From assembly GCA_964401045.1 (NCBI GenBank), contig CAYNXB010000001.1:2518-66517 (forward strand): a DNA stretch of 64,000 nucleotides. Direction: 5' to 3'. Of this stretch, positions 15,521-38,598 are shown piece after piece (position 1 is the stretch's first letter; each line of letters starts with the position of its first letter). Made by a program: the position numbers and the translations under genes. The notes below the pieces were generated by a model that worked only from the letters and a program-made list of their open reading frames with translations, was not told the DNA's origin and made no database searches. The stretch comes from an uncultured Sphingomonadaceae bacterium (GTDB taxonomy: Bacteria; Pseudomonadota; Alphaproteobacteria; Sphingomonadales; Sphingomonadaceae).

Positions 15521-15712
15521 TGTCACCTGCGGACTGGTTCTGCGCGGACACTCGCCCGAAAGAGGGATAGAGGGAAGACTCCCGCGCGATCGGTTCACTG
15601 TTGCATCGAACTGCCCGTGCGCTCAGCTCATCCTTTCCAGCAGGCGGACAGGGCGCGCGGCGGGCGCTTTCACATTTGCGCCTGCGTGCACTCACAACCG
15701 ACCGCCGGCGTT

Positions 15713-15730
15713 TCCGGATATCTGCGTAAT
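15713..15730 (+). promoter_or_regulatory. conserved 18-bp box, copy 1 (TCCGGATATCTGCGTAAT); candidate regulator-binding site
   Basis: One of 12 related intergenic copies (see findings). It ends 52 nt upstream of the proposed start of the phosphorylase operon, in the divergent region shared with the HlyD/ABC operon. Confidence 0.45.
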
Positions 15731-15782
15731 TCGAACGGGAGCTGGCCGGTGCAAGAGCGGAGGGGAGACAGAGGCCCGAACA

Positions 15783-17267
15783 TTGCCAACCATTCGCCAC
15801 ATCCCGATCGATACTTACCCGGAAAACACTGCGTTCATGCTGCGCCGGGGCGACGGATATTCAGCCGAACAGTTCCAGGCGCTGCGCAAAATCCGGGTGA
15901 CCGCGCCGAACGCTGAAATCCTTGCGACCCTCGCGCTGGTGGACGACGCGCGCATCGTCGGGCTGGGCGAAATTGGGCTCGGCGAACAGGCGTACCGCCG
16001 CCTAGCCCAGCCCGAGGGGACAGACGTCAGCGTCGCGCAGGCGCAACCGCCCGCGAGCCTCGAGTTCGTCCGCCGCAAGATCGATGGAGACTCGTTTCAG
16101 GCGGCCGAGCTCGCTGCGATCGTCGGCGATATTGCGAACCACCGGTACTCACCGATGGAAATCGGCGTCTTCCTGGTGGCGTGCGCCGGCTTCATGAGCA
16201 CCGAGGAAACACTGTTGCTCACGCGCGCAATGATCGATGTCGGTGACAGGCTGCAGTGGGATTCCCCGCTGGTCGTGGACAAGCACTGCATCGGCGGCAT
16301 TCCCGGTAATCGCACCTCCATGATCGTGGTGCCTATCGTCGCCGCTCATGGGCTGATCTGCCCGAAGACCTCCTCTCGCGCAATCACATCGCCGTCTGGC
16401 ACGGCCGACGCGATGGAGGTGCTCGCGCAGGTCGATTTCACCGAAGCGCAGATGTCGGCAATTGTCGCGAAAGAAAAGGCAGTACTGGCATGGGGCGGAC
16501 GTGTGCGCCTGTCTCCGGCCGACGATGTCCTGATCTCGGTCGAGCGGCCGCTGAGGCTCGACACGTTCGAGCAAATGGTGGCGTCGATCCTGTCGAAGAA
16601 GGCCGCCGCCGGTTCGACCCACCTGGTGATCGACATCCCGGTTGGCCCAACCGCGAAGGTGCGTTCGCAGAATGACGCCGTACGACTGCGCAAGCTGTTC
16701 GAATATGTCGCGCGCCACATCGGCATTGTCACGGACGTCGTCTTCACCGACGGCTCCCAGCCCGTGGGCCGCGGGATCGGTCCGGTGCTGGAAGCGCGCG
16801 ACGTCATGCAGGTTCTACGTGGCGCCGCAGACGCGCCGGCGGACTTGCGCGAGCGGGCGATATTCCTCGCAGGGCGAGTGCTGGAATTCGATCCTGCGTT
16901 GCGAGGGGGGGACGGGCCGCGGCGTGCGCGCGAGCTGCTTGCCTCGGGCGCTGCGCTGGTGGCGATGGAGCGGTTGATCGAAGCGCAAGGGCGCCAGACG
17001 CAAGCCCTCGTCCCGGGAGCCCATACGTTCGAGGTGACGGCGCCCACCGGCGGCCAGGTCCTGGCGATCGATTGCGAACGCCTTGCGCGCATCGCCCGGC
17101 TCGCCGGTGCGCCAATGGACAAGGGCGCGGGAATCGACCTGCGGCACAAAGTGGGCGCCCGCGTGAAGCGGGGTGCGCCGCTCTATTGCATCCACGCCAG
17201 CGCGCCGGAAGGACTGCGCTTCGCCCGCGAGCTTGCCAGCGATGGCGCCGGATACCGCATCGCATGA
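15783..17267 (+). CDS. thymidine phosphorylase family protein (archaeal-type putative thymidine/AMP phosphorylase)
   Basis: TTG 15783 is the first in-frame start that keeps the conserved N-terminus (PTIRHIPIDTYPENTAFML). The long upstream part of track ORF 15240.. overlaps the HlyD gene. Motifs DKHCIGGIPGNRTS and TSSRAITSPSGTADAMEVL match the TIGR02645-type 'putative thymidine phosphorylase' group rather than canonical DeoA (recollection). Confidence 0.85.
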   Translation: MPTIRHIPIDTYPENTAFMLRRGDGYSAEQFQALRKIRVTAPNAEILATLALVDDARIVGLGEIGLGEQAYRRLAQPEGTDVSVAQAQPPASLEFVRRKIDGDSFQAAELAAIVGDIANHRYSPMEIGVFLVACAGFMSTEETLLLTRAMIDVGDRLQWDSPLVVDKHCIGGIPGNRTSMIVVPIVAAHGLICPKTSSRAITSPSGTADAMEVLAQVDFTEAQMSAIVAKEKAVLAWGGRVRLSPADDVLISVERPLRLDTFEQMVASILSKKAAAGSTHLVIDIPVGPTAKVRSQNDAVRLRKLFEYVARHIGIVTDVVFTDGSQPVGRGIGPVLEARDVMQVLRGAADAPADLRERAIFLAGRVLEFDPALRGGDGPRRARELLASGAALVAMERLIEAQGRQTQALVPGAHTFEVTAPTGGQVLAIDCERLARIARLAGAPMDKGAGIDLRHKVGARVKRGAPLYCIHASAPEGLRFARELASDGAGYRIA

Positions 17268-18154
17268 TCGCCGCGATCTTCGCCTTTGCGGAATCCAGCG
17301 TCCAGGCCGGTCGTCTGGCCGACGAGCTCGGCCTTCCAAATCGCGCCGTCACCGTCCACCGGTTCCCCGACCGTGAGAGCCTGGTCCGGGTCGAGCGATC
17401 ACCGCCCACGGCGCTCTTGTATCGCTCGCTCGACGATCCGAACGCCAAGCTGGTTGAACTGCTGCTGGCGGTTTCCGCCCTTCGCGCCAACGGAGCGGCC
17501 CGCGTGATCCTGATCGCGCCGTACCTTGGCTATATGCGGCAGGATCGCGCGTTCCAGCCGGGCCAGGCGGTTAGCCAGCAGGTGGTAGGGCGACTATTGG
17601 CCGAGCGCATCGACGCGCTGTTGACTGTCGATCCGCACCTCCACCGAACGCATTCGCTCAGCCAGGTGGTGCCCGGAATCCCCGCAGTTGCACTGTCCGC
17701 GGCGCCTGTGCTCGCAGCCGCGCTCGGTCTTGCCGACGATCCCCTGATCGCGGGGCCGGACGACGAATCCGCAGCCTGGCTCGAGGCCGTCGCAGCTCCG
17801 CTGGGTCTCGAAACCTTGCTCGGGGCAAAACAACGACGAGGTGATCGACAGGTCGAAATCAGCTTCGCGAACATCGAGCGGTGCAAGGATCGACACGTGG
17901 TCCTGATCGACGACCTCATCTCGAGTTGCGAGACGATGAGGGAGGCCGCCCTGCAATTGCGCAAAGCCGGAGCGGCCCGTGTCGAGGTGCTCGCCACCCA
18001 TTGCCTTTCCTCGGAGGCGGACCTTGTCCGCCTGACGGGCGCAGGCGTCTTGCGGGTTCGGGCGACCGATACGGTGCCGGGTCCCGCTGCCTCCTTACCC
18101 ATCGCGGGATTGCTGGCGTCGGCCATCCGTCATCAACGCTGGGCAGGAGAATAG
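17264..18154 (+). CDS. ribose-phosphate pyrophosphokinase family protein (Prs-like, divergent PRPP loop)
   Basis: ATG 17264 overlaps the upstream stop (ATGA). Prs-family motifs PYLGYMRQDR and TVDPHLH are present. The PRPP loop reads VVLIDDLISSCETM, with SCET in place of the usual TGGT. Confidence 0.8.
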   Translation: MIAAIFAFAESSVQAGRLADELGLPNRAVTVHRFPDRESLVRVERSPPTALLYRSLDDPNAKLVELLLAVSALRANGAARVILIAPYLGYMRQDRAFQPGQAVSQQVVGRLLAERIDALLTVDPHLHRTHSLSQVVPGIPAVALSAAPVLAAALGLADDPLIAGPDDESAAWLEAVAAPLGLETLLGAKQRRGDRQVEISFANIERCKDRHVVLIDDLISSCETMREAALQLRKAGAARVEVLATHCLSSEADLVRLTGAGVLRVRATDTVPGPAASLPIAGLLASAIRHQRWAGE

Positions 18155-18155
18155 C

Positions 18156-19793
18156 GTGTCCAAATACCCGATCTCGCTGACCTTTCATGGCGCGGCACGC
18201 ACCGTCACCGGATCATGCATGGAGTTTAGCCATGAAGGTCGGTCGCTCCTGGTCGATTGCGGCCTTTTCCAGGGCTCGCGGACGCTGGAGAGTCTCAACT
18301 CGGGCGATTTTGCCTTCGACCCCGGTCGGCTCGGGGGAGTCGTGCTCACTCACGCCCACCTCGACCACAGCGGGCTCCTGCCGAAGCTCGCGGCGCAGGG
18401 ATTCAAGGGCCCGATCTGGTGCACTCAGCCAACCGCCGATCTTCTGGAATACATGCTGGCGGACGCCGGCCGAATCCAACAGAACGAGGCAGAGCGGCGC
18501 AATCGCCGGCGTGACCGGGCCGGGGAAGTCCCATTCCTCCCGATTTATACCGAGGCCGACGCTCACGACGCCTGGCGCCTGTGCAAGCCCGTTGCGCTGG
18601 AGGAATGGTTCGAGCCGGTCCCGGGCTTTCGTGCGCGGCTGTGGAACGCCGGCCATATCCTTGGGGCTGCTTCGGTCGAGCTCCAGGCGGGCGGTGTCCG
18701 CATCCTGTGCTCCGGGGACATCGGCCCCGGGCACAAGGCGTTCCAGAACGCCCCGGAAGCCCCCCAAGGCTTCGATCACGTGATTTGCGAGGGAACTTAC
18801 GGCGATCGGCAACGCGACAGAGTCACGATGGAGGAGCGGCGCAAAACCTTGGAAGCCGAGGTGCGTGGTGCGCTGACTCGCGGCGGCAACCTTGTCATTC
18901 CCGCATTCGCGCTCGAGCGGACGCAGGAGCTGCTGCTCGATCTCGATTTCCTGCTGCGCTCGGGCGCAATTCCGGAAGTCCAGGTATTCGTGGATTCGCC
19001 GCTTGCAAGCGAAGTCACGAGTGTCTTCGCCCGTTATGCGCGCGAGTTGCAAGACACCGGCGGGCAAAACATCTTCGCTCACCCCGCATTCCATTTCGTC
19101 CGCGACACCGCCGAGTCCATCCGGCTCAACTCGGTTTCGGGCGCCATCATCCTCGCCGCGTCCGGGATGTGCGAGGGAGGGCGCATCCGCCACCACCTGA
19201 TCCACAATCTAGCGCGGCGCGATTCAACCATCCTGTTCGTGGGTTTCCAGGCGCAAGGCACGCTTGGTCGGGTCCTGCTCGAAGGTGCGAAGGCCGTCCG
19301 CATCTCGGGGGCCGATGTGCGCGTTCAGGCGCAGATCCGCAGGATCGAGCACTATTCGGCGCATGCCGACAAGGATGAATTGCTCGACTGGATCGAGCGA
19401 CGCATGCCCATCTCCGGATCGGTGTTAATCGACCACGGCGAACCGGAAGCGGTGGAAGCAATCCGTCGCGAGCTGCAGCGGCGCTGGTCCAGTTTGGCGG
19501 TCATGCTACCCGAGCTGGGCGATACGTTCGGGCTCGCCGCGCGCCAAGCCGCGAAGCGGCTCGCGAAGGGCAACGTGTCCTTGCACGAAACCGTCGGCAC
19601 CGATTGGCAAAACGCTTACGCGGATTTCGCGACCTCGCTCAAAACCAGATTGAGCGCCATGCGCGATGGGCGCCAGCGCCGGGAAGCGATCGAGGAGATG
19701 CGCAAGGTTCTCGAGAGCTACAATTCAGCGCGTCAGGAGCGCACGAAGCGCCACGCTGTTCCGGCATCGCGCCATAGGCGGCGGCATGAGTGA
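18156..19793 (+). CDS. MBL-fold metallo-hydrolase with beta-CASP / RNA-specificity domain (RNase J/CPSF-like)
   Basis: GTG 18156 lies 1 nt after the Prs-like stop. The HAHLDHSG (HxHxDH) motif, beta-CASP motifs (ICEGTYG, HYSAHAD) and a C-terminal RMMBL-like region are present. Confidence 0.88.
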   Translation: MSKYPISLTFHGAARTVTGSCMEFSHEGRSLLVDCGLFQGSRTLESLNSGDFAFDPGRLGGVVLTHAHLDHSGLLPKLAAQGFKGPIWCTQPTADLLEYMLADAGRIQQNEAERRNRRRDRAGEVPFLPIYTEADAHDAWRLCKPVALEEWFEPVPGFRARLWNAGHILGAASVELQAGGVRILCSGDIGPGHKAFQNAPEAPQGFDHVICEGTYGDRQRDRVTMEERRKTLEAEVRGALTRGGNLVIPAFALERTQELLLDLDFLLRSGAIPEVQVFVDSPLASEVTSVFARYARELQDTGGQNIFAHPAFHFVRDTAESIRLNSVSGAIILAASGMCEGGRIRHHLIHNLARRDSTILFVGFQAQGTLGRVLLEGAKAVRISGADVRVQAQIRRIEHYSAHADKDELLDWIERRMPISGSVLIDHGEPEAVEAIRRELQRRWSSLAVMLPELGDTFGLAARQAAKRLAKGNVSLHETVGTDWQNAYADFATSLKTRLSAMRDGRQRREAIEEMRKVLESYNSARQERTKRHAVPASRHRRRHE

Positions 19794-19893: not shown

Positions 19894-19990
19894 GTCTCGG
19901 GAGCTTCGAAGCCACCTCGACAGGTCTGCTGCACGTGCTCGGCGTGCCGATCGCGGCAGCGCTCTCGGCAACGATGCTGCTGCGTTTTGC

Positions 19991-20596
19991 TCAGTCTTTG
20001 GTTGCCGCCGTCTCGTGAGCGCGAAGCTTATCGCGAAACTCCTCAAGCCGGGCCCGATACCCTTCGGCATCGCCATACTCGAGGAACTCAAAATACCGGT
20101 GATGCGGATCGCTTACCCGCAGCGCGTGCTTGATCGGGCACCAATACTGCTCGGTCCGGCTCGCCACCTCGCGCACGTAGGCGATCAGTCCGTTCGCATA
20201 GCCGCAATAGAGGCAGTTGAGCGCTTCGATCCAGTTCAGATAGGCGAGGTGGCCCCGGTCGAGCGCGACATAGTCCGCCCTGCGCACGCGCGGAATTCCG
20301 TACGCCCGGAAACACACGGCCTGGTAGGCGCTGATCCACATATCGAGCACCAGCAGCGGAACGATCAGCGAATAGACGACCGGCGCGGACAGGTTTGTGG
20401 CGGAGGTTGAATCGGCCAGGAATCGCGCCGTGCCGATCCTGAACCTGCGTTGCTCGAGCGCCAGACCTTTCTCGAATTTGACGAGGCCATCCTTGAACGT
20501 CCATCCGAGCGCCTTGCGACGCCGTTCGATCTCCCGATCCAGCTCCTGCTGAAGGCGCACGATCTCGTCGGCCAGTTCGTGCATCCGCCTTGTCAT
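19991..20596 (-). CDS. hypothetical membrane protein (coiled-coil N-terminus, one or two TM helices, Cys-rich C-terminus)
   Basis: ATG 20596 is preceded by GGGAGGA. The 201-aa product has HELADEIVRLQQELDREIERRRKAL, a hydrophobic LSAPVVYSLIVPLLVLDMWISAY segment, then LNCLYCGYANG...YWCPIKH. No family was recognised. Confidence 0.6.
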   Translation of the reverse strand: MTRRMHELADEIVRLQQELDREIERRRKALGWTFKDGLVKFEKGLALEQRRFRIGTARFLADSTSATNLSAPVVYSLIVPLLVLDMWISAYQAVCFRAYGIPRVRRADYVALDRGHLAYLNWIEALNCLYCGYANGLIAYVREVASRTEQYWCPIKHALRVSDPHHRYFEFLEYGDAEGYRARLEEFRDKLRAHETAATKD

Positions 20597-20659
20597 GAAT
20601 CCTCCCGCGCAGTTGGAAGCCTCGACCACGTTCGATAGCCGGGTCTCCGGAACGGCAAA

Positions 20660-21691
20660 TCAGGCCTGCTCGAAATCGATGACGACACGACCTTCGATCG
20701 CGCCCTCTCGCATGCGGCCGAAGATCTCGTTGATGTTCTCCAACCGATCGACCGCGACTGTCGCGCGAACCTTGCCGGCGGCTGCGAAATCGAGTGCTTC
20801 CTGGAGGTCCAGTCGTGTGCCCACGATCGAGCCGCGCACGGTTATCCCGTTGAGCACCGTATCGAAGATCGAAAGCGGGAAATCTCCGGGCGGCAGGCCG
20901 TTGAGCGAGATCGTGCCGCCACGACGCGCCATGCCCATCGCCTGCTGGAATGCCTTGGGGCTGACCGCGGTCACAAGAACGCCGTGTGCGCCGCCGATCT
21001 CCTTCCTGATGAAGGCCGCCGGATCGTCATGCAGCGCATTGACGCTGAGCGATGCACCGAGTTCCTCTGCCAGCCTGAGCTTCGCATCGTCGATATCGAC
21101 CGCAACGACGTTAAGCCCCATGGCCTTGGCATATTGTACGGCCATGTGCCCCAGGCCGCCGATACCCGAAATCGCCACCCAGTCGCCCGGCTTGGTGTCG
21201 GTGACCTTGAGACCCTTGTAGACGGTGACTCCGGCGCAGAGCACTGGCGCGATCTCCGCGAACCCGACATTGGCGGGCAGATGGCCGACGTAGCGGGCAT
21301 CGGCCAGGAGATATTCCGCGAAGCTTCCGTTTACCGAGTAACCGGTGTTCTGCTGAAGCTCGCACAGGGTTTCCCATCCGCCCAGGCAGTGCGCGCAGTG
21401 GCCGCATGCGGTATAGAGCCACGGCACACCGACCCGGTCCCCTTCCTTCACCCAGGTCACCCCCGCACCCACCGCAACGACGTGACCGACGCCCTCGTGA
21501 CCGGGGATGAAAGGGGGCTGCGGTTTGACTGGCCAATCCCCGTTCGCGGCGTGCAGATCGGTATGACATACGCCCGTGGCGGCGACCTTTACCAAAATTG
21601 TGCCCGGGGTGACTTCGGGCACCCTCACTTCCTCGATCACGAGCGGCTTTCCGAATTCGCGGACCACTGCGGCTTTCATTGTGTTTTCCAT
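20660..21691 (-). CDS. zinc-dependent alcohol dehydrogenase (AdhP-like)
   Basis: 343 aa. The catalytic Zn site GVCHTDLH, the structural Zn Cys cluster CGHCAHC...C and the NAD motif GIGGLGH are present. AAGAGG lies 8 nt upstream of ATG 21691. Confidence 0.92.
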
Positions 21692-21815
21692 GCCCGCGCC
21701 TCTTGGCCAAAGGGAGATTCAGTGCCGCGTCGATGCGGCGAGCCATCGCCGGAGCGCATGATGGTTTGCGGCGCTTTCAAGCGGCCTTGATGATCCTGCT
21801 GCGGGTTTGGCCCTA

Positions 21816-21833
21816 TGCGGATTGTTACGTAGC
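21816..21833 (+). promoter_or_regulatory. conserved 18-bp box, copy 2 (TGCGGATTGTTACGTAGC)
   Basis: Lies in the adh / receiver divergent region, 109 nt upstream of copy 3. It matches the box consensus at the invariant positions T1, G4 and T11. Confidence 0.35.
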
Positions 21834-21924
21834 TCGGGCCGATCCCGCGCTCCTCTTGGGCGGTTCCCTTTGCCGCACAGCGCCGAACGTTCGCGCCGGG
21901 CACGGGCGCGGACCTCGCCTCGTT

Positions 21925-21942
21925 TCCGGATATTTGCGTAAT
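21925..21942 (+). promoter_or_regulatory. conserved 18-bp box, copy 3 (TCCGGATATTTGCGTAAT)
   Basis: 17/18 identical to copy 1. It ends 47 nt upstream of ATG 21990. Confidence 0.45.
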
Positions 21943-21989
21943 GCCGGAGAGCAGGGATCCTCCGACTAAAGGCTGGCAAGGAGGAAGCC

Positions 21990-22358
21990 ATGCCCCACGC
22001 GTTGATCGTCGAGGACAACATGATAGTGAGCCGTGCGGTGGAAGATCGCCTGCTTCCGCTGGGCTTCGATTCTTTCGACCATGCATGGACCGCGCAACAG
22101 GCACTTCGGGCCGCCGAACAACGGCCGCCAGACCTGGTCATCATCAGCGATGATGTCGCCGGCTCATCGCCCGAACGGCTTGCCCGGCAAATATCCGATC
22201 GGCGTGGCTCCGCGATCGTTTTGATTACAGGAGCAAAGTGCGCTCCTTACCAACCGTCCTCCGAAGCCCCTGCGAACAGCTCGCGCTTCCCCCTCAGCGA
22301 TATCGATCAGGCCGTCGCGCTTTCTGCCCGGCAGGTCTGCAAACCGCAGGCGGCATGA
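21990..22358 (+). CDS. single-domain response-regulator-like protein (atypical receiver)
   Basis: AAGGAGGAAG RBS. 122 aa with ALIVEDN, DLVIISDD and IVLITG. The usual K-P motif position reads RFP, so the conserved Lys appears to be missing. Confidence 0.7.
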   Translation: MPHALIVEDNMIVSRAVEDRLLPLGFDSFDHAWTAQQALRAAEQRPPDLVIISDDVAGSSPERLARQISDRRGSAIVLITGAKCAPYQPSSEAPANSSRFPLSDIDQAVALSARQVCKPQAA

Positions 22359-22418
22359 TCGCGGGGCGCGGCGATGGCTGCCAATCATAGCCGCCCGGGC
22401 GAAAGGGTGGGAGTGTCG

Positions 22419-23400
22419 ATGCGGGCCATGCAACTCGATGCCCCGGGCGCATCGCTACGGTTGGTCGAAAGGTGCTTGCCTCTGCCCTCCCCCGGCGAGG
22501 TCCGCCTCGCCGTTTCAGCATGTGGGGTGTGCCGCACCGACGTCCATGTAGCCGACGGCGACATTCATGGAAATTTGCCGATCGTTCCTGGTCATGAAGT
22601 GGTCGGGCTCATCGATATGCTCGGCAAGGGCGTCCACCATCTCGCAGTCGGTGACCGGGTTGGCGTTCCGTGGCTTGGCCGAACTTGCGGCCGTTGTTTC
22701 TATTGCCGGGCGGGCAGGGAGAACCTCTGCGATCACCCGCAGTTTACGGGGTTCACCCGCGACGGAGGCTTCGCGACCCACTGCATCGCCGATGCGGATT
22801 TTTGCTTTCCATTGCCTCGTCGGCTCGATGACCTGCATGCGGCGCCCCTGCTGTGCGCAGGGCTTATCGGCTACCGGGCCTACTGCATGGCAGGAGACGC
22901 GCCCAATCTCGGCCTCTACGGATTTGGCGCGGCGGCCCACATCCTGGCCCAGCTTGCCTCGGCGCAAGGGCGAAGGGTGTTCGCCTTTACGCGCGAGGGA
23001 GATATTGCCGGCCAGAGCTTCGCCCGTGAGCTCGGTTGCGCCTGGGCGGGGGCTTCAGGGGAAGCGCCGCCGGCGCCGCTGGATGCCGCGATCATTTTCG
23101 CTCCGGTAGGGGCACTCGTGCCGATGGCGCTCAAGGCTGTCCGCAAAGGCGGGCGCGTCGTTTGTGCGGGAATCCACATGAGCGATATCCCCGCGTTTCC
23201 ATACGCCGCATTGTGGCACGAACGCTCGGTCCGCTCGGTCGCAAACCTGACGCGAAGCGATGGAAATCGAGTTCCTGCGACTCGCCGGTCAAGTGGCCAT
23301 CGACACGCTCGTGACAGCGATGCCCCTCGAGGACGCGAATGTGGCGCTCGCGCGCGTGCGCGCTGGCGAAGTTGAGGGAGCACTGGTCCTCGTCCCCTGA
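22419..23400 (+). pseudogene. zinc-binding alcohol dehydrogenase family protein with apparent +1 frameshift near 23262-23267
   Basis: ATG 22419 follows GGGTGGGAG. GVCRTDVH, GHEVVG and the CGRCFYCRAGRENLC Zn cluster are present. After ...ANLTRSDG the track frame gives an Arg-rich tail. The +1 frame reads (I)EFLRLAGQVAIDTLVTAMPLEDANVALARVRAGEVEGALVLVP*, ending at 23400, which is the expected family C-terminus. Confidence 0.6.
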
Positions 23401-24034: not shown

Positions 24035-24163
24035 CCGGGTAGTCTTTTGCGACTGGCAGCAGGTGCGGCGCGGCCCGCCGGCGTCGCGGCATGGCCTCAT
24101 GCCCGCCCCGGCACCAGGTGAATGCCACGCGCCTAGTGCACTCGCTGCCGGGTCCTCGTTCCA

Positions 24164-24181
24164 TCCGGTTATGTGCGTAGT
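24164..24181 (+). promoter_or_regulatory. conserved 18-bp box, copy 4 (TCCGGTTATGTGCGTAGT)
   Basis: Lies in the divergent region between the cytochrome c'-like gene and the USP/ATPase pair, 164 nt upstream of ATG 24346. Confidence 0.4.
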
Positions 24182-24345
24182 CGAAAAGCGGGCGAGCTGG
24201 GCTAGATCCTCCCATCGACCCGCACCCGGCGGGCGACACGAGACTCCTGGGGCCACCCGGACGCGCTCGATCGCGGTCAACTCCCGCGGAAGCGGTGCCG
24301 AAGCAATGAATTAAGGCCCAAGAATGTGCTGAACGAGGAGACCAT

Positions 24346-29268: not shown

Positions 29269-29876
29269 AACTCGTTCATGTCGTCGATGACGAAGAGCCG
29301 ATCCGCCGCGCGACGCAGATGATGCTGAATGTCATGCGCTATGAAGCTCTGACCTACCCTTCGGGATACTCGTTTCTCGATGCCCTTATGGACCTGTCGC
29401 CGGGTTGCGTGCTGCTGGACCTACGCATGCCCGAAATCGATGGCCTCGAGGTCCAGCGTAGGTTGCAGAAGAAAGGCTGCGACTTGCCAGTGGTCTTGAT
29501 GAGCGGACACGGAGATCTGACCGTGGCGGTCACGGGGATGGAGCAAGGAGCCGTGGCGTTCCTGGAAAAGCCTTTCCCGCGAGCCGCGCTCGAGCAGACT
29601 CTGGAAATAGCGTTCCTGCGGCTCGATGATAGCAACGGTTACAACCGATATCTCCAATCGGCCGCCGCCGCGGTCGGGAAGCTCGAGCCGATCGACCGGC
29701 AGGTGCTTGAGCTGATCGCGCGTGGCCAGGATGCAGATGCCATCGCTCAGCGCACCGGCTTGCCCGCGTTGTCGATCGAAATGTCCCGCTCGCGAATATT
29801 CGCGGACCTGGGGGCAACGTCGGTCACGGAAGTGCTGCGGATCGCTTTTGCCGCCGCTCGGGCCCCGACGGGTTAG
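29265..29876 (+). CDS. fixJ: FixJ-family response regulator (REC + LuxR-type HTH)
   Basis: GTG 29265 overlaps the fixL stop (GTGA). It has [29 protein letters not shown] and FLEKPF, with a C-terminal LuxR/GerE HTH. Confidence 0.88.
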
Positions 29877-29890
29877 GATGTATACGTAAC
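29873..29890 (+). promoter_or_regulatory. conserved 18-bp box, copy 5 (TTAGGATGTATACGTAAC)
   Basis: Overlaps the fixJ stop codon and ends 56 nt upstream of GTG 29947. Confidence 0.4.
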
Positions 29891-30345: not shown

Positions 30346-30443
30346 AGGCTGTGTTCGATCCGCCCTGTCCCGGTGCCGCCTGTTCCGTGTTCGTCCAGCT
30401 GGTGTTGCCCGGAGAAGGAGCAGCGGCCGCCGGGATGCTCTAC

Positions 30444-30461
30444 TCCGGATATATCCTGAGT
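30444..30461 (+). promoter_or_regulatory. conserved 18-bp box, copy 6 (TCCGGATATATCCTGAGT)
   Basis: Ends 54 nt upstream of ATG 30516. It belongs to the duplicated upstream region shared with copy 12 at 35955. Confidence 0.45.
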
Positions 30462-30515
30462 TACCGGTATTCGAGCCGCATCTAAGTCGAGCCGGGCACC
30501 TGAGGAGGTTCGGCC

Positions 30516-32070: not shown

Positions 32071-32126
32071 GGTTGCCTCCACCTGCCCTTCGCGCGCCCT
32101 ATCCCTCGCTCGACACCGGCGCATCA

Positions 32127-32144
32127 TCCGTAGATTTGCGAATG
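32127..32144 (+). promoter_or_regulatory. conserved 18-bp box, copy 7 (TCCGTAGATTTGCGAATG)
   Basis: Lies in the divergent region between the second fixJ-like gene and the cupin gene. It ends 85 nt upstream of ATG 32230. Confidence 0.35.
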
Positions 32145-32229
32145 GCGAAGATCGCCGGACGCGGCAAAGCTGGTGGACGTCACATAGCTCGCCCACACCC
32201 GGCGAGCAAACTGCGAAAGGGATAGGCCG

Positions 32230-33159: not shown

Positions 33160-33226
33160 GAAGAGTCCCTGGCCGAAGGTGAGTACCGCACGACACTGGG
33201 AAATATACGGAAGGGCCCAGCGCGCA

Positions 33227-33799: not shown

Positions 33800-33822
33800 G
33801 ACCCGATTCCGGCGTGTGCCGG

Positions 33823-34401
33823 TTACATGCCGGCCATGCCCAGCTCCCTCATTTCCCGCAGCCATGCTCCGCGCTTGATATCGTTCGAATCGACCAGGCC
33901 GATGATTGATTCACCGACCACGCTTATCCCAACGCCGCGCAGGATGTTGCGCTCGAGGCTCTTGAGGCTGTGCGCGCGATAGACCAGCCGGTAGAAGAAC
34001 GCCGGCATGCCCATGGTTACAACGATGCGCGCCGAGCGGCCCTTGAGCAGCTTCCGCGGCAGGCCGTTCTGGCGATAGCTCAGCGCGAAGCCCGGCCGCA
34101 TGACCTGCTCCAGGAAGCCTTTGAGCAGCGCGGGGATGTCACCGAGCCATAGCGGATAGAGGAACACGACATGCTGGGCCCAGGCGATGTCCTCCTGTGC
34201 CCTTGCGATGACCGCGGGAGGCTGACCATCCGCCCAGTCGTGCGCGCTGCGCAGCAGCGGAAAGTCGAGGTCGGCGAGCCTGATCAGCCGCGTTTGATGA
34301 TCGCTCGCGCCGTCGAGATAGGCGGCGGCGAGCGCGTGCACGAACCGCGCGGGATCAGGATCCGGATGCGCATCGATGACCAGGATTCGGTCGGTGGACA
34401 T
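33823..34401 (-). CDS. flavodoxin-like fold NAD(P)H dehydrogenase (quinone) family protein
   Basis: ATG 34401 follows GAGGAGG. 192 aa with ILVIDAHPDP..., VVFLYPLWLGDIPALLKGFLEQV, typical of the Flavodoxin_2 / KefF-MdaB-type family. The 231-codon extension of track ORF 33823..35094 is rejected. Confidence 0.8.
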   Translation of the reverse strand: MSTDRILVIDAHPDPDPARFVHALAAAYLDGASDHQTRLIRLADLDFPLLRSAHDWADGQPPAVIARAQEDIAWAQHVVFLYPLWLGDIPALLKGFLEQVMRPGFALSYRQNGLPRKLLKGRSARIVVTMGMPAFFYRLVYRAHSLKSLERNILRGVGISVVGESIIGLVDSNDIKRGAWLREMRELGMAGM

Positions 34402-34482
34402 GCGAGCCTCCTCAGAAGGGACAGCAGGCGCCTCGGTCTTGCGGGGGAAAGGGACGGCGAGGCGCCTGCCGCGCCGATGTCC

Positions 34483-34543
34483 TCCGGATCCGTCGCTCGC
34501 GGCATCGGGAATGTTACGGAGCGCCTCGGGAACATTACCGATG
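34483..34543 (+). promoter_or_regulatory. array of three phased box copies (8-10): TCCGGATCCGTCGCTCGC, TCGGGAATGTTACGGAGC, TCGGGAACATTACCGATG
   Basis: Copies start at 34483, 34505 and 34526, i.e. 22 and 21 bp apart (two helical turns). The array lies 82-142 bp upstream of the quinone reductase start on the other strand and 68 nt upstream of small ORF 34612. Confidence 0.4.
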
Positions 34544-34611
34544 CCCAACGTCGCAGCGCGGCAGCCATGATCGGACGGAACGCCGCTGCGCGGCACAAGG
34601 GAGATCGAGCC

Positions 34612-34728
34612 ATGTTCGCCGGCGGGTACAGCGATCGGAAGCTTTCCCAAGGCCGGTATCGGGTCACTTTCACCGGCAACCGGCTGACCTCGCGTGAGAT
34701 CCGCCCCGACGCCCACTATCGACCGTGA
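34612..34728 (+). CDS. possible small protein (38 aa)
   Basis: AAGGGAG lies 8 nt upstream of ATG 34612. The product is MFAGGYSDRKLSQGRYRVTFTGNRLTSREIRPDAHYRP. It may be a gene remnant (see findings). Confidence 0.3.
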   Translation: MFAGGYSDRKLSQGRYRVTFTGNRLTSREIRPDAHYRP

Positions 34729-34743
34729 TCGAAGGAGAGTCCC

Positions 34744-34911
34744 ATGGCCAGCATCCCGCCTGACAAGCCGAACCGCGTCGACCCCCAGTCGCCGCCCGAG
34801 CGGCGACAGCCACCAGAACCGGCCATCCCTCCGGCGCTTCCCGAGACAGAACCGGACGCCCCGGATGTCGACGAGCCCGGCCGTTGCCCGGACGAATGCC
34901 CTCCTGAGTGA
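34744..34911 (+). CDS. possible small Pro/Glu-rich protein (55 aa)
   Basis: GAAGGAGAG RBS and GC3-rich codons. The product is MASIPPDKPNRVDPQSPPERRQPPEPAIPPALPETEPDAPDVDEPGRCPDECPPE. It shares the reading frame of ORF 34612, separated by one TGA and five codons. Confidence 0.35.
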   Translation: MASIPPDKPNRVDPQSPPERRQPPEPAIPPALPETEPDAPDVDEPGRCPDECPPE

Positions 34912-34925
34912 AGCGCACGCGGGCC

Positions 34926-34943
34926 TCCGGATAATTCCGCATG
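34926..34943 (+). promoter_or_regulatory. conserved 18-bp box, copy 11 (TCCGGATAATTCCGCATG)
   Basis: Ends 74 nt upstream of the BON gene ATG 35018. Confidence 0.4.
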
Positions 34944-35017
34944 TCTTGCCCACCCGACACCCGGCAATCTCGATCCACCGGCGCCAGTAAAAGGCCGCGA
35001 GAACACAGGAGATACCC

Positions 35018-35668
35018 ATGGACCAGGATAGAGTGCTGCAACGCAAGGTGATCGCCGAGCTCGAGTGGGAGCCCGCGGTCGAGTCCGCCGACATTGGCGT
35101 TTCCGTCGTGGACGGCGTCGTCGCCCTGTCGGGCTACGTGAAGAGCTACGCCGAGAAGCTCGCGGCCGAGCGGGCGGTTCGCCGCGTCGCGGGCGCTAAG
35201 GCGATCGCCGAGGAGCTCAAGGTCCGGTACGACACGGACGCGAAGACTGCGGATCACGAGATCGCCAGGCGCATCCTCGACGTGTTCGGCTGGAACGTGC
35301 TGCTCCCCAAGGACAAGCTCCAGGTCAAGGTCGAGAACGGCTGGGTGACGCTCAGCGGTGAAGTCGAGTGGCAGTACCAGAACCACGAAGCCAAGCGTGT
35401 CGCCGCGCAGATCAACGGCGTCACGGGAGTCTCGAACAACATTACCATCAAGCAGCGCCTGCACCCCAGCGACGTGCGCAAGCAGATCGAAGACGCCTTC
35501 GAACGGCAGGCCGGCCTCGACGCGCGCGGCGTGATCGTGGCGGTCGACGGCCACAAGGTGACGCTGAGCGGCCAGGTGCATGCCTGGTTCGAGCGCCAGG
35601 CCGCCGAACGCGCCGCCTGGGCCGCGCCCGGCGTCACCCAGGTGGTCGACCGGATCGCGGTAAACTGA
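35018..35668 (+). CDS. BON domain-containing protein (three BON repeats, OsmY-like, no signal peptide seen)
   Basis: CAGGAGATACCC RBS; 216 aa. It has three repeats of the pattern ...V.V..G.VTLSG.V....... (VVDGVVALSGYV, VENGWVTLSGEV, VDGHKVTLSGQV). Confidence 0.88.
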   Translation: MDQDRVLQRKVIAELEWEPAVESADIGVSVVDGVVALSGYVKSYAEKLAAERAVRRVAGAKAIAEELKVRYDTDAKTADHEIARRILDVFGWNVLLPKDKLQVKVENGWVTLSGEVEWQYQNHEAKRVAAQINGVTGVSNNITIKQRLHPSDVRKQIEDAFERQAGLDARGVIVAVDGHKVTLSGQVHAWFERQAAERAAWAAPGVTQVVDRIAVN

Positions 35669-35674
35669 CGACCG

Positions 35675-35704: not shown

Positions 35705-35954
35705 GCACAATCGATCGGGCAATTCGCCGGCGCGTCCGGTCCGGCGTGGCGGAGCAGGCCGGCCTGCGCCTGCGCCTCGCACCGCAGCGGCATCGGTGCT
35801 CAGGCCGACGATGATCGTCGCCAATTGCGGCCGCGATGGAGGTTTGCGAAGCGGTCCGCGCTGTCCCGGTAACCTGACGGCGCCTGCTCGTCGCTCCCCC
35901 CTCAGCTGCCTCCCTGAAGATCGATAATCGCGGGGCGCTGCCTCGGCAGGCGCT

Positions 35955-35972
35955 TCCGGATATCTCCGGAGT
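35955..35972 (+). promoter_or_regulatory. conserved 18-bp box, copy 12 (TCCGGATATCTCCGGAGT)
   Basis: Ends 51 nt upstream of ATG 36024. The flanking ...GTTACCGG... is shared with copy 6. Confidence 0.45.
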
Positions 35973-36023
35973 TACCGGCTCTCGGCCGCTGCGTACCACG
36001 TAGCGAACACGAGGAGTTCGGCC

Positions 36024-36833
36024 ATGCGGTCCATTTTGCTTCATATCGACGATGATCCGTGTCTCGAGGCGCGCATTCAGGTCGCGCTTGATCTCGCGCG
36101 GTGCTTCGAAGGGCATGTCACCTGCATCCAGGTGATCCCGTACGTCGTCGGAATGCCGGGCGACTTCTACGGGTCCATGGCCGCCGATCTGGTGCCTGCG
36201 TTCCAGGAGGCGGCCGACGCGCTGAGAGCACGGATCGAAGGCAATCTCGCGAACGAGGACGTCAGTTGGAGCTGGGTGCAGGAAGACGGTCCCGCTGTCG
36301 ATCGGATGCTGAAATTCACCAGTCTGAGCGACATCGCGGTGGTCGGCTGCTGCGATCCACTCCGCAAGGATTATTCGCCGTTGCCCGGTGACCTCGCGAT
36401 CCGTTCGCGCACGCCGGTGCTGGTGGTTCCGCCCAAGTCGAACGGGCTGGACTGCGGCGGCCCCGCTCTGGTGGCCTGGGACGGATCCCCCGAAGCTTGC
36501 CGTGCATTGCGCGCTGCGTTGCCTCTGCTGGCGCGTTCCTCGAGCGTGACGCTCGCCACCGTGCGCGAAAAGGCCGAGCGCCGCTACGATCTGCCGCCGA
36601 CCGACGGGGCCGAATATCTCTCGCGCCACGGCATATCCTGCGAGATGGTCGAGTTTCCGGCCGCCACGTCGATCGCCCATGCGCTCGGCGACGCCGCGAT
36701 GGTTCGCAATGCGTCCTACCTCGTGATGGGGGTCTATGGCCACGCGCGGCTGGTCGAGACAGTCTTCGGTGGGGTCACACGCGAGGTGCTCGCGAACCCG
36801 CCGGTGCCGTTGCCGATTCTGGCTTGCCATTGA
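36024..36833 (+). CDS. universal stress protein (tandem Usp domains), paralog of 30516-31325
   Basis: GAGGAG RBS. It has the same 269-aa length and collinear similarity to the 30516 copy along the whole protein, including the C-terminal PPVPLPILACH. Confidence 0.88.
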   Translation: MRSILLHIDDDPCLEARIQVALDLARCFEGHVTCIQVIPYVVGMPGDFYGSMAADLVPAFQEAADALRARIEGNLANEDVSWSWVQEDGPAVDRMLKFTSLSDIAVVGCCDPLRKDYSPLPGDLAIRSRTPVLVVPPKSNGLDCGGPALVAWDGSPEACRALRAALPLLARSSSVTLATVREKAERRYDLPPTDGAEYLSRHGISCEMVEFPAATSIAHALGDAAMVRNASYLVMGVYGHARLVETVFGGVTREVLANPPVPLPILACH

Positions 36834-36854
36834 TTGCCACGAGGGAGAACAGCC

Positions 36855-37397
36855 ATGACCTCTTCTGCGCTCGATCGGACGGTCGCCGAGCGGCCGGACT
36901 TCCATCTCATCACCCGCTCGGGAGTTCGGCTGCGTCTGCGGCAAGTCAGAGCGGACGACGGAGCAGACCTGAAAAAACTTCTCGGCAGCCTCACGCCGGA
37001 GGATCTCCGATTCCGCTTTCTGGTCTCGCAGAATGAGCCCGATGCCGCGCAGATCGGGCGGCTGCTCACGGTCGATCACCGGCGAACGGAGCACGTCCTC
37101 GCCATTGACGAGCTCACATGCCAGCCGGTCGCGAGCCTGATGATCGTGGCCGACCCCCAGATGCAAACAGCGGAAGTGGCGATCGCCATCGCGTCCGGTG
37201 CGCGTAACCGCGGTATCGGCTGGGCCTTGCTCAGGCACGCCGCAGACCTGGCGCGAGCGCGTGGCATCAAGAAGCTGCGCTCGATCGAAAGCCGCGCGAA
37301 CCATGACGCGCTCGAAGTCGAACATACCCTTGGTTTCCGCTCTTCCACTGTCGAAGACGACCCTGCCCTGGTGATGGTGGAGGCGGACCTTGCCTGA
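36855..37397 (+). CDS. GNAT family acetyltransferase, Pat-like (protein lysine acetyltransferase-type) domain
   Basis: ATG 36855 follows GAGGGAG, 21 nt after the USP stop. VRLRLRQVRADDGADLKKLLGSLTPEDLRFRFL resembles the L-R-P-I-R-P-x-D...F...LS-x-E-x-x-Y/R-x-RFF N-terminal signature of Pat/PatZ GNAT domains (recollection). The acetyl-CoA loop is ARNRGIGWALL. Confidence 0.7.
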   Translation: MTSSALDRTVAERPDFHLITRSGVRLRLRQVRADDGADLKKLLGSLTPEDLRFRFLVSQNEPDAAQIGRLLTVDHRRTEHVLAIDELTCQPVASLMIVADPQMQTAEVAIAIASGARNRGIGWALLRHAADLARARGIKKLRSIESRANHDALEVEHTLGFRSSTVEDDPALVMVEADLA

Positions 37398-38598
37398 CCC
37401 GCGTTCCAGCTATGCGCGTGCCTGCGTTCACGGCATCGTTTGGACAATCGCATTATTCGTGGTGCTCTTTGCGACCGCGCTCATCGCCGCCGAGCCCCCG
37501 TCTTCGCGCCAGTGGGACCGCCGGTCCGCAACGGTCTTGCTTGCGTATATCGAGACGCTCGAGACGCATGGACTGGACCCGGCCGACTACGCGCCGTCCG
37601 AACTGCGCGCCGCGCTGAGCTCCGGCGAACAAGGCGAGATCGAGCGTCGTGCCACGCAAAGCTTTGCATTGGTGGCGCACGACCTCGCCTCGGGCCATCT
37701 GCGGCCAGACCAGCGCGGTCGCTATTTCATTCCCTCTGACGTGCCGGACCCGGTCCACACAGCCAATCTGATCGATCAGGCCCTGATCCATAACGATGTC
37801 GCAGGTTCGCTCGAAAGCCTTGCACCGCAGGATCACCAATATCTCGCACTGCGCGCGGCGCTTTGGAAGCTGAGGCCGGGCCAGGTCGACGAGCGGCACA
37901 AGATCGAGGCAAATCTGGAGCGCTGGCGGTGGCTGCCGCGCAATCTCGGTTCGCGCTATCTGGTGGTCAACATCCCCGAATACCAGGCGCGCCTGTTCGA
38001 CGCAGGACAGGTCGTCGCGTCGCACCGTGTCATCGTGGGAAAGACCAGCACCCCCACGCCTCGGTTTCGCGCGGAGGTCAGCGGCGTTATTCTGAATCCC
38101 TCCTGGAGCGTTCCGCAATCGATCATCGCCGAGAGCGTCGGCAAGCTGGTGCGCAATCAGCCGGCCGTCGCGCGAACACGCGGCTATACATGGAGCTTCG
38201 CCAATGGCGGCCTGCGCGTAACGCAACAGCCGGGACCGCAGAATGCGCTGGGGCAGATGAAGCTCGACATGCCAAACCCGTTCACGGTTTACATGCACGA
38301 CACCCCGACCAAGGAGCTGTTCGACAGGGACGTGCGGGCACTCAGCCACGGCTGCATCCGCACGCAGAACCCACTCGACCTCGCCGCCGTCTTGCTTGCC
38401 GGAACCGAGTGGACCGCAGCCAGGATTGCGGACACCGTCGCCACGCGGCGGACGACGCGAGCAGAGCTGTTTCGGCCGGTTCCAGTATACGTCGTTTACC
38501 TGACGGCCGTCGCCGACGACCTCGGGACAATCCGCTACCTCGACGATCCCTACGAGCTCGACCATTCGATCGCCGGGTTGCTGGCCAGGACGGGGTGA
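37390..38598 (+). CDS. L,D-transpeptidase family protein (YkuD domain, YcbB-like)
   Basis: TTG 37390 overlaps the GNAT 3' end by 8 nt. A TM anchor is followed by the catalytic region YMHDTP...LSHGCIR. Confidence 0.85.
   Translation: MPDPRSSYARACVHGIVWTIALFVVLFATALIAAEPPSSRQWDRRSATVLLAYIETLETHGLDPADYAPSELRAALSSGEQGEIERRATQSFALVAHDLASGHLRPDQRGRYFIPSDVPDPVHTANLIDQALIHNDVAGSLESLAPQDHQYLALRAALWKLRPGQVDERHKIEANLERWRWLPRNLGSRYLVVNIPEYQARLFDAGQVVASHRVIVGKTSTPTPRFRAEVSGVILNPSWSVPQSIIAESVGKLVRNQPAVARTRGYTWSFANGGLRVTQQPGPQNALGQMKLDMPNPFTVYMHDTPTKELFDRDVRALSHGCIRTQNPLDLAAVLLAGTEWTAARIADTVATRRTTRAELFRPVPVYVVYLTAVADDLGTIRYLDDPYELDHSIAGLLARTG

Follow-up and report, generated by a model that had tools for sequence, protein, structure and literature searches.

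What unites the genes of a Sphingomonadaceae locus in which a FixL/FixJ pair lies among universal stress proteins (Usp), redox enzymes and RNA-processing genes, and what might switch them on? We addressed this question in a 64,000-nucleotide stretch (the window) of contig CAYNXB010000001.1, from an uncultured Sphingomonadaceae bacterium. A preliminary description had proposed a FixL/FixJ-centred, dormancy-like block at 15521–38598 that parallels the DosR regulon of Mycobacterium tuberculosis and the low-oxygen-activated (lxa) locus of Burkholderia cenocepacia. Our analysis describes what appears to be a chromosomal island of 23–26 kb, combining an oxygen-sensing FixL/FixJ pair with operons for stress, redox and RNA salvage. 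One cis-motif stands, in twelve copies, before nearly all of its transcription units, and no strong copy lies elsewhere in the window; this supports the view of the genes as one FixL/FixJ-centred unit and not as unrelated transcription units. Co-regulation of the block through this motif is, in our judgment, very likely. We hold it probable, with more reserve, that the block is a horizontally acquired chromosomal island beside tRNA-Leu, working as a one-tier, DosR-like FixL-FixJ regulon.

The motif, TCCG(G/T)ATAT-N-T(G/C)CG-N-A(A/G)T (about 18 bp), was recognised on reading the intergenic regions of the block. Twelve boxes of the form T(C/A/G)CG(G/T)A-N4-T(C/G)C(G/C)NA(A/G/T)T were found, all intergenic and all between 15.7 and 36.0 kb (Table 1). 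Between the phosphorylase operon and the Usp3-GNAT-transpeptidase operon, both included (15.7–38.6 kb), almost all transcription units have a box in front, and in most cases its centre lay 56–68 nt 5' of the start codon. Alignment of the boxes revealed weak −10-like hexamers about 33 nt 3' of their centres, which suggests a class II arrangement with the box near −42. In divergent regions some distances are larger: box 1 is 124 nt from the HlyD start, and for box 4 the distances are 138 nt (cytochrome c') and 174 nt (Usp1). The divergent ABC/FtsX/HlyD unit has no box of its own and could only share the one at 15711.

A degenerate form of the motif matched the window eight times, against 0.23 matches expected. 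A 22-nt position weight matrix (PWM) of the window boxes placed strong sites only within 15.7–36.0 kb of the 64 kb; ten sites of at least 12 bits fell in the 23.1-kb block and none in the remaining 40.9 kb. To reduce circularity, a second (external) PWM was built solely from sites in other genomes, and this matrix recovered the same positions and added those at 21812 and 29869. In an unbiased count of all 8-mers common to at least four intergenic regions of the block, TCCGGATA ranked first. It occurs five times in the window, each time in the intergenic DNA of the block, which totals 2,977 bp (p = 2e-7), a clustering that is not due to chance. A scan of the window for sigma-70 promoters and terminators was uninformative.

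Some promoters resemble one another closely. The boxes before the phosphorylase operon (15705–15735) and the degenerate receiver (21917–21947) share CGTTTCCGGATAT-TGCGTAAT, and the leaders of Usp2 and Usp3 (30440–30516, 35950–36024) are alike, so that promoter duplication seems to reach beyond the box. This recalls the duplication origin proposed for FixJ targets of Sinorhizobium meliloti.

The sensor at the centre of the block is well defined. In FixL, Pfam recognises HisKA, HATPase_c and two PAS domains, in addition to a membrane region that is DUF4118-like. Its second PAS domain (residues 244–373) matches the heme domain of Bradyrhizobium japonicum (Bj) FixL (1dp6/1drm, E=1.6e-47), and its kinase core aligns with that of Bj FixL (PDB, 1e-77). 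The heme-pocket motif RHDGYLERY...RIIGIGR...RADGSTFP can be read directly in the sequence, with the proximal His and the FG-loop Arg and Ile residues, and by this pocket FixL appears to be of the O2-sensing type. The transmitter is encoded together with fixJ: FixJa, in translational coupling with FixL, overlaps the fixL stop codon, and fixJb is 2.1 kb away. Among species-representative genomes, the best FixL match was 63% (Sphingomonas deserti).

The two FixJ proteins share 37% identity and differ in their DNA-binding regions. FixJa has a divergent helix-turn-helix (HTH; GerE E=2.8e-5), with a recognition helix that differs from ISPRTIEVYRANVM in the comparison with 5xso. FixJb has a receiver and a LuxR/GerE HTH closest to studied FixJ proteins, and its recognition helix, ISSRTVEVYRANVMTKL, is nearly identical to that of Bj FixJ; DosR structures were not among its top PDB matches. 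Identity between FixJb and the FixL-adjacent FixJ was 41–60% for most related loci and 53–60% for Sphingomonadales loci. An exact copy of FixJb was found only in short Logan metagenome contigs (runs SRR8931235–SRR8931242). The single-domain receiver, which sits at the position of Bradyrhizobium ORF138 and Caulobacter FixT, has an intact acidic pocket, Asp, Ser and Lys, and only two Cys. Further along, 46691–49614 encodes a second NarL/FixJ-type response regulator (46691–47407), a single-domain receiver and a histidine kinase without recognisable PAS or heme domains; this set mirrors the FixL set in layout and has no FixJ-type boxes nearby.

Would the same motif accompany fixLJ elsewhere? A FixL-based scan, with one genome per species, gave 80 loci, mostly from Sphingomonadales with some from Caulobacter and Hyphomicrobiales; with three plasmid loci added, the box comparison set comprised 83 loci (1.69 Mb). 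The window PWM found 31 matches of at least 17 bits in this set, against 2–7 in shuffles. Homologues of the tandem-domain Usp had the motif in their 5' 200 bp in 61% and 57% of cases, against a background of 5%, and the distance between motif and gene was fixed at 74–82 nt in related loci, including other Sphingomonadales and Caulobacter. Receiver genes 3' of fixJ carried the motif in 35% of related loci (5% background). Per 20 kb, sites of at least 12 bits numbered 2.0 in the loci of Sphingomonadales and 0.62 in those of Hyphomicrobiales, with a dinucleotide-shuffle baseline of 0.5–0.8; beside the 12 such sites of the window, about 100 lie in other Sphingomonadales loci, and of these about one third is the chance expectation. 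FixK boxes showed the opposite trend, at 0.42 per 20 kb in Sphingomonadales and 2.46 in Hyphomicrobiales, with none in the window. Gene families of the block also recurred around fixLJ: tandem Usp in 31 loci, alcohol dehydrogenase (ADH) in 14–16, ATPase and GNAT in 14 each, flavodoxin-like in 11, cupin in 9, and BON and beta-CASP in 5 each.

Two loci deserve description. Sphingobium sp. TomMM7A has a homologous island, with identities of 75% for thymidine phosphorylase (TP), 64% for beta-CASP, 60% for BON and 59.5% for FixJb, that additionally holds ppsA, pfkB, a phosphoribosyltransferase and a CBS protein. There, next to FixLJ, FixJ-type boxes stand before ppsA, pfkB, the CBS gene and an operon of metallo-beta-lactamase-fold (MBL) protein, TP and phosphoribosyl pyrophosphate (PRPP) synthase (Prs), and no FixK box was found in that island. 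The TomMM7A product annotated 'ornithine aminotransferase' (pTomMM7Aa 23463–24116) is 60% identical over its full length to the triple-BON protein of the window, so this name is likely a mis-annotation; the 140-aa 'inosine-5-monophosphate dehydrogenase' is, by size and annotation, probably a stand-alone CBS-pair protein. The FixL locus of Sphingopyxis granuli (NBRC 100800) holds seven FixJ-type boxes (3300–21100 of the locus), which adjoin genes like ldhA (D-lactate dehydrogenase), cupin, globin, ackA/pta/phaC (the last for polyhydroxyalkanoate (PHA) synthase), CBS and GNAT. These neighbouring genes include lxa/DosR-type functions missing from the window island.

Which protein binds the box? 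In 16 of 20 Hyphomicrobiales loci the best match fell on one conserved element, TC(A/C)GGAA-N4-TCCTTAAGG, which has a two-hexamer architecture like that of the window box and is where FixJ acts in Bradyrhizobium-type loci. In Microvirga roseola, where the order is fixL-fixJ-receiver-fixK and the downstream Crp-family gene was confirmed, the window PWM scored 21.1 bits in the fixJ-receiver intergenic region, beside a FixK box. The half-sites of the box also agree with CCTCCGTAGA and CCTACGTA in the aligned published fixK promoters, with the published FixJ SELEX (systematic evolution of ligands by exponential enrichment) classes GTAMGTAG and GTAGTTTCCC, with the S. meliloti site TAAGTAATTTCCCTTA, and with GTACGTAG in R. 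palustris PfixK. Thus, the link of the unit to FixL/FixJ, which the preliminary description had drawn from gene content, gained ground: the motif coincides with the conserved fixJ-(receiver)-fixK element and resembles published FixJ sites. It is most likely a FixJ box.

Several points weigh against this reading. The window PWM was first derived by eye, which the external PWM and the unbiased 8-mer test mitigate. Published Rhizobiales and Caulobacter fixK promoter fragments scored weakly with the full PWM, at or below about the 99th percentile and often lower; these fragments were taken from supplement text, in which alignment columns were possibly lost. The likeness to published fixK promoters resides mainly in the (C/A)CGTA half, and box spacing is apparently 1 bp longer than in the published S. 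meliloti site, TAAGTAATTTCCCTTA. Published descriptions of the FixJ DNA site disagree among themselves. Because the full PWM scored the published fragments weakly, the likeness that we claim to known FixJ sites should be taken as one of half-sites and architecture. Moreover, the regulator directly behind FixL is the divergent FixJa and not FixJb, and the phosphotransfer partner of FixL is not certain. The fixL-fixJa pair has no box in its 161-bp 5' gap and would need read-through from the Usp1-ATPase unit. Lastly, a fixK gene may lie elsewhere in the genome, outside the 64-kb window. Two-tier FixK wiring was itself rejected for the block, on the grounds that the window held no FixK/FNR box (TTGA-N6-TCAA) and no Crp/FNR-family gene (cNMP_binding/HTH_Crp) among its scanned open reading frames (ORFs).

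Some of these points would suit a different binder. That is, the box might be shared by the block but bound by FixJa, by the LuxR-type regulator at 46691–47407 or by a factor elsewhere, with FixL and FixJb as mere regulated cargo. The coupling of FixJa to FixL together with its different recognition helix, the second regulator, receiver and kinase set at 46.7–49.6 kb, and the weak scores of published fixK promoters all speak for this explanation, but it fits poorly with the distribution of the motif. The motif occurs beside fixLJ in dozens of genomes that have, within 10 kb, a FixJb-type gene and no other of the FixJ type; genes like FixJa turned up solely in the closest relative. In Microvirga-type loci the motif sits at the canonical fixJ-receiver-fixK promoter, and the 46.7-kb system lies outside the box-containing region. 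We consider another binder unlikely. Because motif-bearing genomes usually have only a FixJb-type regulator near FixL, we assign the box to FixJb with moderate confidence.

A further possibility is that FixL-FixJ does control the block but answers NO or CO at the heme, or a cue of redox or energy limitation, so that the island would serve nitrosative or redox stress. The block does encode a cytochrome c' (a classical binder of NO and CO), a quinone reductase and other thiol/redox-type cargo. In addition, genes of an integrative and conjugative element (ICE) of S. granuli, ICE3, answer several stresses, and Fnr-independent anaerobic genes in that species peak when respiration is blocked. Against such a signal, the FixL heme pocket has the proximal His and FG-loop Arg and Ile of the O2-sensing type, and in Bradyrhizobium and Burkholderia the signals for homologous operons are microoxia and 6% O2, respectively, which makes this explanation rather improbable. 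FixJb as the binder with low oxygen as the signal is the combination that we favour, and we think it will probably hold.

Finally, that the block is an EcfG/PhyR general-stress or FNR/FixK regulon, or an unrelated juxtaposition whose motif is a by-product of promoter or gene duplication, is very improbable. In its favour, cargo of the Usp and BON kind is typical of the general-stress response, Usp2 and Usp3 (75% identical as proteins) are plainly duplicated, promoters included, and the boxes of the phosphorylase operon and the degenerate receiver agree at 20 of 22 positions. Against it, EcfG promoters were rejected (GGAAC-N15-18-CGTT gave three matches against 1.6 expected, and none in block promoters), FixK/FNR boxes are absent from the window as noted, and local duplication is insufficient because the motif precedes non-paralogous genes and keeps its 5' distance from orthologues in other genera.

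Under the favoured reading, with FixJb acting on low oxygen, the block would work as follows. Loss of O2 from the heme of membrane-anchored FixL would release kinase autophosphorylation, as the established biochemistry of the family suggests, and the phosphate would pass to the canonical FixJb. Phospho-FixJ would then bind the boxes at about −42 from the transcription start, in place of a −35 element, and directly activate about 12 transcription units. The predicted output would cover stress and envelope functions (three Usp, the BON protein, the LdtD-type transpeptidase and DedA), redox balancing (two Zn-ADHs, quinone reductase, cytochrome c' and cupin), cation pumping (P-type ATPase), protein acetylation (the Pat-type GNAT, whose gene immediately follows one for a Usp) and RNA-to-ribose salvage (beta-CASP nuclease, nucleoside monophosphate (NMP)-type phosphorylase and PRPP synthase, with the adjoining ABC efflux system). 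The box 66 nt 5' of fixJb suggests that fixJb is positively autoregulated, and the box before the single-domain receiver points to a negative loop, either FixT-like or by way of a phosphate sink. This scheme shows no FixK/FNR step, and the output set would be one placed elsewhere under FixK2, Anr or DosR for non-growing survival at low oxygen. From homologous systems, we infer low-oxygen expression of the block and a role in persistence.

Genes were separated from shadow ORFs in this high-GC window by third-position GC (GC3), and products were assigned with Pfam, NCBIfam and PDB sequence searches; the structures 1dp6, 1drm and 5xso are thus PDB sequence matches. These searches recovered every item of the earlier inventory and added an L,D-transpeptidase, a DedA-like protein and two proteins without a family match. 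The packing of genes into one block was confirmed, but its start at 15521 was not, as the first gene begins at about 15783. The 'P2-type ATPase' is a cation ATPase of the P2/P3 type, with type IIA Ca and type IIIA H+ models as its best partial matches. The 'Pat-like GNAT' was upheld by its nearest solved structures, the GNAT domains of the protein acetyltransferase Pat (1e-7).

Table 1. FixJ-type boxes, genes and operons of the proposed island and its left edge (window coordinates; distances are from box centre to start codon)
Feature	Position	Strand	Evidence and remarks
tRNA-Leu(GAG)	12174..12260	+	ARAGORN; left edge of compositionally distinct region
MacB-type ABC ATPase, FtsX permease, HlyD adaptor	12601..15598	-	Pfam; divergent from phosphorylase operon
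Box 1 (TTTCCGGATATCTGCGTAATTC)	15711..15732	+	PWM 30.6 bits; 62 nt 5' of phosphorylase start
Operon phosphorylase/PRPP synthase/beta-CASP MBL	15783..19793	+	
Archaeal-type thymidine/NMP phosphorylase	15783-17267	+	NCBIfam NF003338 667 bits, TIGR02645 583 bits
PRPP synthase-like protein	17264-18154	+	PRK07199 321 bits
Beta-CASP MBL nuclease	18156-19793	+	Pfam Beta-Casp and RMMBL
Operon Zn-ADH + 201-aa protein	19991..21691	-	
201-aa protein	19991-20596	-	No family match
Zn-ADH 1 (ADH1)	20660-21691	-	Pfam ADH_N, ADH_zinc_N
Box 2 (GCTACGTAACAATCCGCATAGG), faces ADH1	21812..21833	-	24.7 bits, external PWM; 132 nt from ADH1 start
Box 3 (TTTCCGGATATTTGCGTAATGC)	21923..21944	+	30.6 bits; 56 nt from degenerate-receiver start
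Degenerate receiver + second Zn-ADH	21990..23400	+	Pfam
Degenerate receiver	21990-22358	+	20.9 bits, under Pfam cut-off
Second Zn-ADH	22416-23400	+	Frameshift near 23255 (frame comparison with Caulobacter homologue)
Cytochrome c'-like lipoprotein	23498-24034	-	PF01322 29.9 bits; LAGC lipobox and CLACH heme motif read from translation
Box 4 (CATCCGGTTATGTGCGTAGTCG), divergent cytochrome c'/Usp1 region	24162..24183	+	21.7 bits
Usp1, single domain	24346-24798	+	Pfam
P2/P3-type cation ATPase	24788-27262	+	Pfam, NCBIfam; overlaps Usp1
FixL, membrane-anchored heme-PAS histidine kinase	27424-29268	+	Pfam, PDB
FixJa, FixJ-family response regulator	29265-29876	+	5xso (Bj FixJ) 7.5e-33
Box 5 (GTTACGTATACATCCTAACCCG), 5' of single-domain receiver	29869..29890	-	12.6 bits, external PWM; 68 nt from receiver start
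Single-domain receiver	29947-30345	+	Pfam Response_reg 8.3e-14
Box 6 (ACTCCGGATATATCCTGAGTTA)	30442..30463	+	25.4 bits; 64 nt from Usp2 start
Usp2, tandem domains	30516-31325	+	Pfam
FixJb, canonical FixJ	31408-32070	-	5xso (Bj FixJ) 8.5e-51; GerE 5.4e-20
Box 7 (CATCCGTAGATTTGCGAATGGC), divergent FixJb/cupin region	32125..32146	+	25.8 bits; 66 nt from FixJb, 94 nt from cupin start
Cupin	32230-32625	+	Pfam Cupin_2
143-aa protein	32728-33159	-	No family match
Box 8 (CTTCCGTATATTTCCCAGTGTC)	33192..33213	-	27.5 bits; 44 nt from start of 143-aa protein
DedA/VTT-like membrane protein	33227-33865	-	VTT_dom 28.6 bits, under its cut-off
Flavodoxin-like NAD(P)H quinone reductase (Flavodoxin_2)	33823-34401	-	Pfam Flavodoxin_2 110 bits
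Boxes 9 + 10, adjacent, 5' of flavodoxin-like gene	34501..34545	.	24.6 and 13.8 bits, external PWM; 110-134 nt from start codon
Box 11 (CCTCCGGATAATTCCGCATGTC)	34924..34945	+	27.9 bits; 84 nt from BON start
Triple-BON protein without signal peptide	35018-35668	+	Pfam BON, three stretches, 160 bits
Box 12 (CTTCCGGATATCTCCGGAGTTA)	35953..35974	+	29.5 bits; 60 nt from Usp3 start
Operon Usp3-GNAT-transpeptidase	36024..38598	+	Reading frames abut or overlap
Usp3, tandem domains	36024-36833	+	Pfam
GNAT, Pat-type	36834-37397	+	
LdtD-type L,D-transpeptidase	37390-38598	+	Pfam

Several products call for comment beyond Table 1. The phosphorylase scored 466 bits with the AMP-phosphorylase model, under that model's cut-off. 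Between ADH1 and the gene for the 201-aa protein the gap is 63 nt (ATG at 20596) or 30 nt (longest ORF, to 20629). Neither this protein nor the 143-aa protein had a Pfam or NCBIfam match. The former, co-transcribed with ADH1 behind a box, begins with a coiled coil, contains a hydrophobic segment and is rich in Cys in its C-terminal half, and homologues of the latter adjoin FixL in two related loci. In the second Zn-ADH the frame shifts after ...ANLTRSDG and the conserved C-terminus (...PLEDANVALARVRAGEVEGALVLVP*) runs on in another frame, ending at about 23400; the gene is either a pseudogene or affected by an assembly error. The Usp1-ATPase pair was also found on a Croceibacterium plasmid. 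The tandem-domain Usp2 and Usp3 had no solved Usp structure among PDB matches at E<=1e-3, and the triple-BON protein is OsmY-like by NCBIfam, with a score under the cut-off. The divergent region at 34393–35017, which holds boxes 9 to 11, is unusually long (625 bp) and also contains a 38-aa ORF (~34611–34727) and a proline-rich 55-aa ORF (~34745–34912) after a strong Shine-Dalgarno sequence.

The phosphorylase operon has a recurrent partner. Phosphorylase/MBL genes are linked to HlyD/ABC genes on Novosphingobium aromaticivorans pNL2, on an Azospirillum plasmid and in lxa (BCAM0300–0305), and on the two plasmids and in the window the phosphorylase/PRPP-synthase/MBL set is repeatedly joined to an HlyD + ABC/FtsX exporter (MacB- or RbbA-type) in varying orientations. 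The recurrence suggests one conserved functional module, whose chemistry is uncharacterised, and because of it the ABC/FtsX/HlyD genes at 12601–15598 probably belong to the block. On pNL2, TP-Prs occurs without nearby fixLJ and without a box. On the Azospirillum plasmid, TP-MBL-HlyD-ABC stands behind ATGATCGGGATCAA, a box like that of bll3117 in Bradyrhizobium diazoefficiens. Megablast of the whole block against plasmids returned short sub-modules only (72–77% identity) and no syntenic copy.

The genomic setting fits an acquired island. The left flank consists of chromosomal core genes (metXW, hisC, tyrC, ftsE), and GC3 falls from 0.857 in genes left of tRNA-Leu to 0.78 in genes at 12.6–50.6 kb (p=0.0014), with tRNA-Leu(GAG) exactly at the drop. 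The low-GC3 stretch extends past the boxed block over a LysR gene, several short-chain dehydrogenases/reductases, an AraC/DJ-1 regulator and the second two-component system. The tRNA adjacency and the GC3 shift were the only signs of an ICE in the window: no att repeat of the tRNA-Leu 3' end was found there, and no integrase, relaxase or type IV secretion genes within the 64 kb, beyond which the element could reach.

The wider proposition, that FixLJ of Sphingomonadales has been rewired from a FixK trigger to a DosRS-like master switch directly binding a dozen promoters of a mobile 'hypoxic persistence' island, seems to us evenly balanced. If true, the island and its relatives would offer enough natural sites to define the long ill-defined FixJ operator, for which two TNCGNA-type hexamers 10 bp apart form a testable model. 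It would also indicate a transferable kit for surviving oxygen loss in 'strictly aerobic' sphingomonads, a group of interest in bioremediation and plant association. The RNA-to-ribose salvage module (beta-CASP nuclease, NMP-type phosphorylase, PRPP synthase and ABC efflux) would then be a biochemically uncharacterised pathway under low-oxygen regulation in three lineages.

How does this arrangement compare with known systems? FixLJ is a textbook oxygen sensor whose direct targets are generally counted as very few (fixK, nifA and some others). In Bradyrhizobium, FixJ acts upon very few promoters and the output genes carry FixK boxes: operon bll3117-3116-3115 of B. diazoefficiens, with a thymidine phosphorylase family gene, a second gene of uncertain identity and an MBL hydrolase gene, is a microoxic FixK2 target, and Usp, cytochrome c and efflux adaptor genes are microoxia-induced targets with FixK2 boxes. 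The window shares with the FixLJ-FixK2 system, and with the FixLJ-FixK cascades of Caulobacter and Rhizobiales, a heme-PAS FixL, a FixJ with a near-identical recognition helix, a receiver 3' of fixJ, a similar kind of output and a related FixJ box in the fixJ-fixK region. The differences are that its 64 kb contain neither a FixK box nor a Crp-family gene, that FixJ-type boxes mark about 12 output promoters, and that output genes which are scattered in Bradyrhizobium are packed into one island.

In the DosR regulon of M. tuberculosis, a heme kinase signals to a NarL/FixJ-superfamily regulator that binds many promoters directly and is autoregulated, and the cargo includes several tandem Usp, a P2-type ATPase (CtpF) and phosphoribosyl-type enzymes. 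DosS and DosT bind heme in GAF domains, however, and the DosR box is a different 20-bp palindrome, whereas the sensor here is of the PAS-heme type, the regulator is a FixJ orthologue and the tandem Usp lack a match to solved Usp structures at the threshold given above; the block is thus not a DosR regulon proper. The earlier parallel therefore stands as an analogy in logic and falls as homology of regulator or box, and the likeness is best regarded as convergent.

The parallel with lxa fared better, holding against the published gene table (Table 4 of PMC3721108). The lxa locus is a compact set of about 50 genes with mobile DNA on its flanks; 6% O2 induces it, and its aerobic host needs it to survive anoxia. 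At the family level both loci have multiple Usp, BON 'phospholipid-binding' proteins, Zn-ADH, a cation ATPase, a metal-dependent RNase beside ABC-transporter genes, cytochromes and two-component systems (Table 4 of PMC3721108), and both have one shared intergenic motif. The motifs are of different types: that of lxa is Anr/FNR-like (TGA-N6-TCA), occurs at 17 intergenic points and accompanies CRP/Anr-type regulators encoded in the locus, and it does not precede the genes of the window. The host of lxa belongs to the Betaproteobacteria, and its Hsp20, nitroreductase, class II ribonucleotide reductase, ribokinase, AckA/Pta and PHA genes are absent from the window island, although some of these lxa-only genes adjoin fixLJ in S. 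granuli and Sphingobium.

A comparable setting is that of ICE3 in S. granuli TFA, which is inserted at a tRNA, has Usp in its core and fixL/fixJ in its soft core near the tRNA end, and responds to anaerobiosis and other stresses (bioRxiv 10.64898/2025.12.11.693706). The window resembles it in belonging to Sphingomonadales, in tRNA adjacency and in combining Usp with fixL/fixJ, and the S. granuli FixL locus has its seven boxes; unlike ICE3, the window holds no integrase, relaxase or type IV secretion genes. In the literature, FixLJ of sphingomonads is noted only as plasmid- or ICE-borne. The statement that such a block had not been characterised in sphingomonads hence needs narrowing: an ICE with a Usp core and fixL/fixJ in its soft core appears in the 2025 S. 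granuli preprint and the operons are FixK2 targets in Bradyrhizobium, but direct FixJ wiring is described in neither source, and no FixJ box or FixJ regulon is reported for ICE3 (bioRxiv 10.64898/2025.12.11.693706). Anaerobically induced, Fnr-independent genes have been reported in S. granuli, strongest when respiration is blocked and with their regulator unexplained; if our reading is correct, FixJ could be that regulator. The output module is, on this comparison, already known as low-oxygen regulated, and what appears new is its FixJ-box wiring without a FixK tier together with its packing in one island. It would thus exemplify regulatory rewiring, with the same output genes reached through FixK boxes in Bradyrhizobium, Anr boxes in Burkholderia and, we propose, FixJ boxes here.

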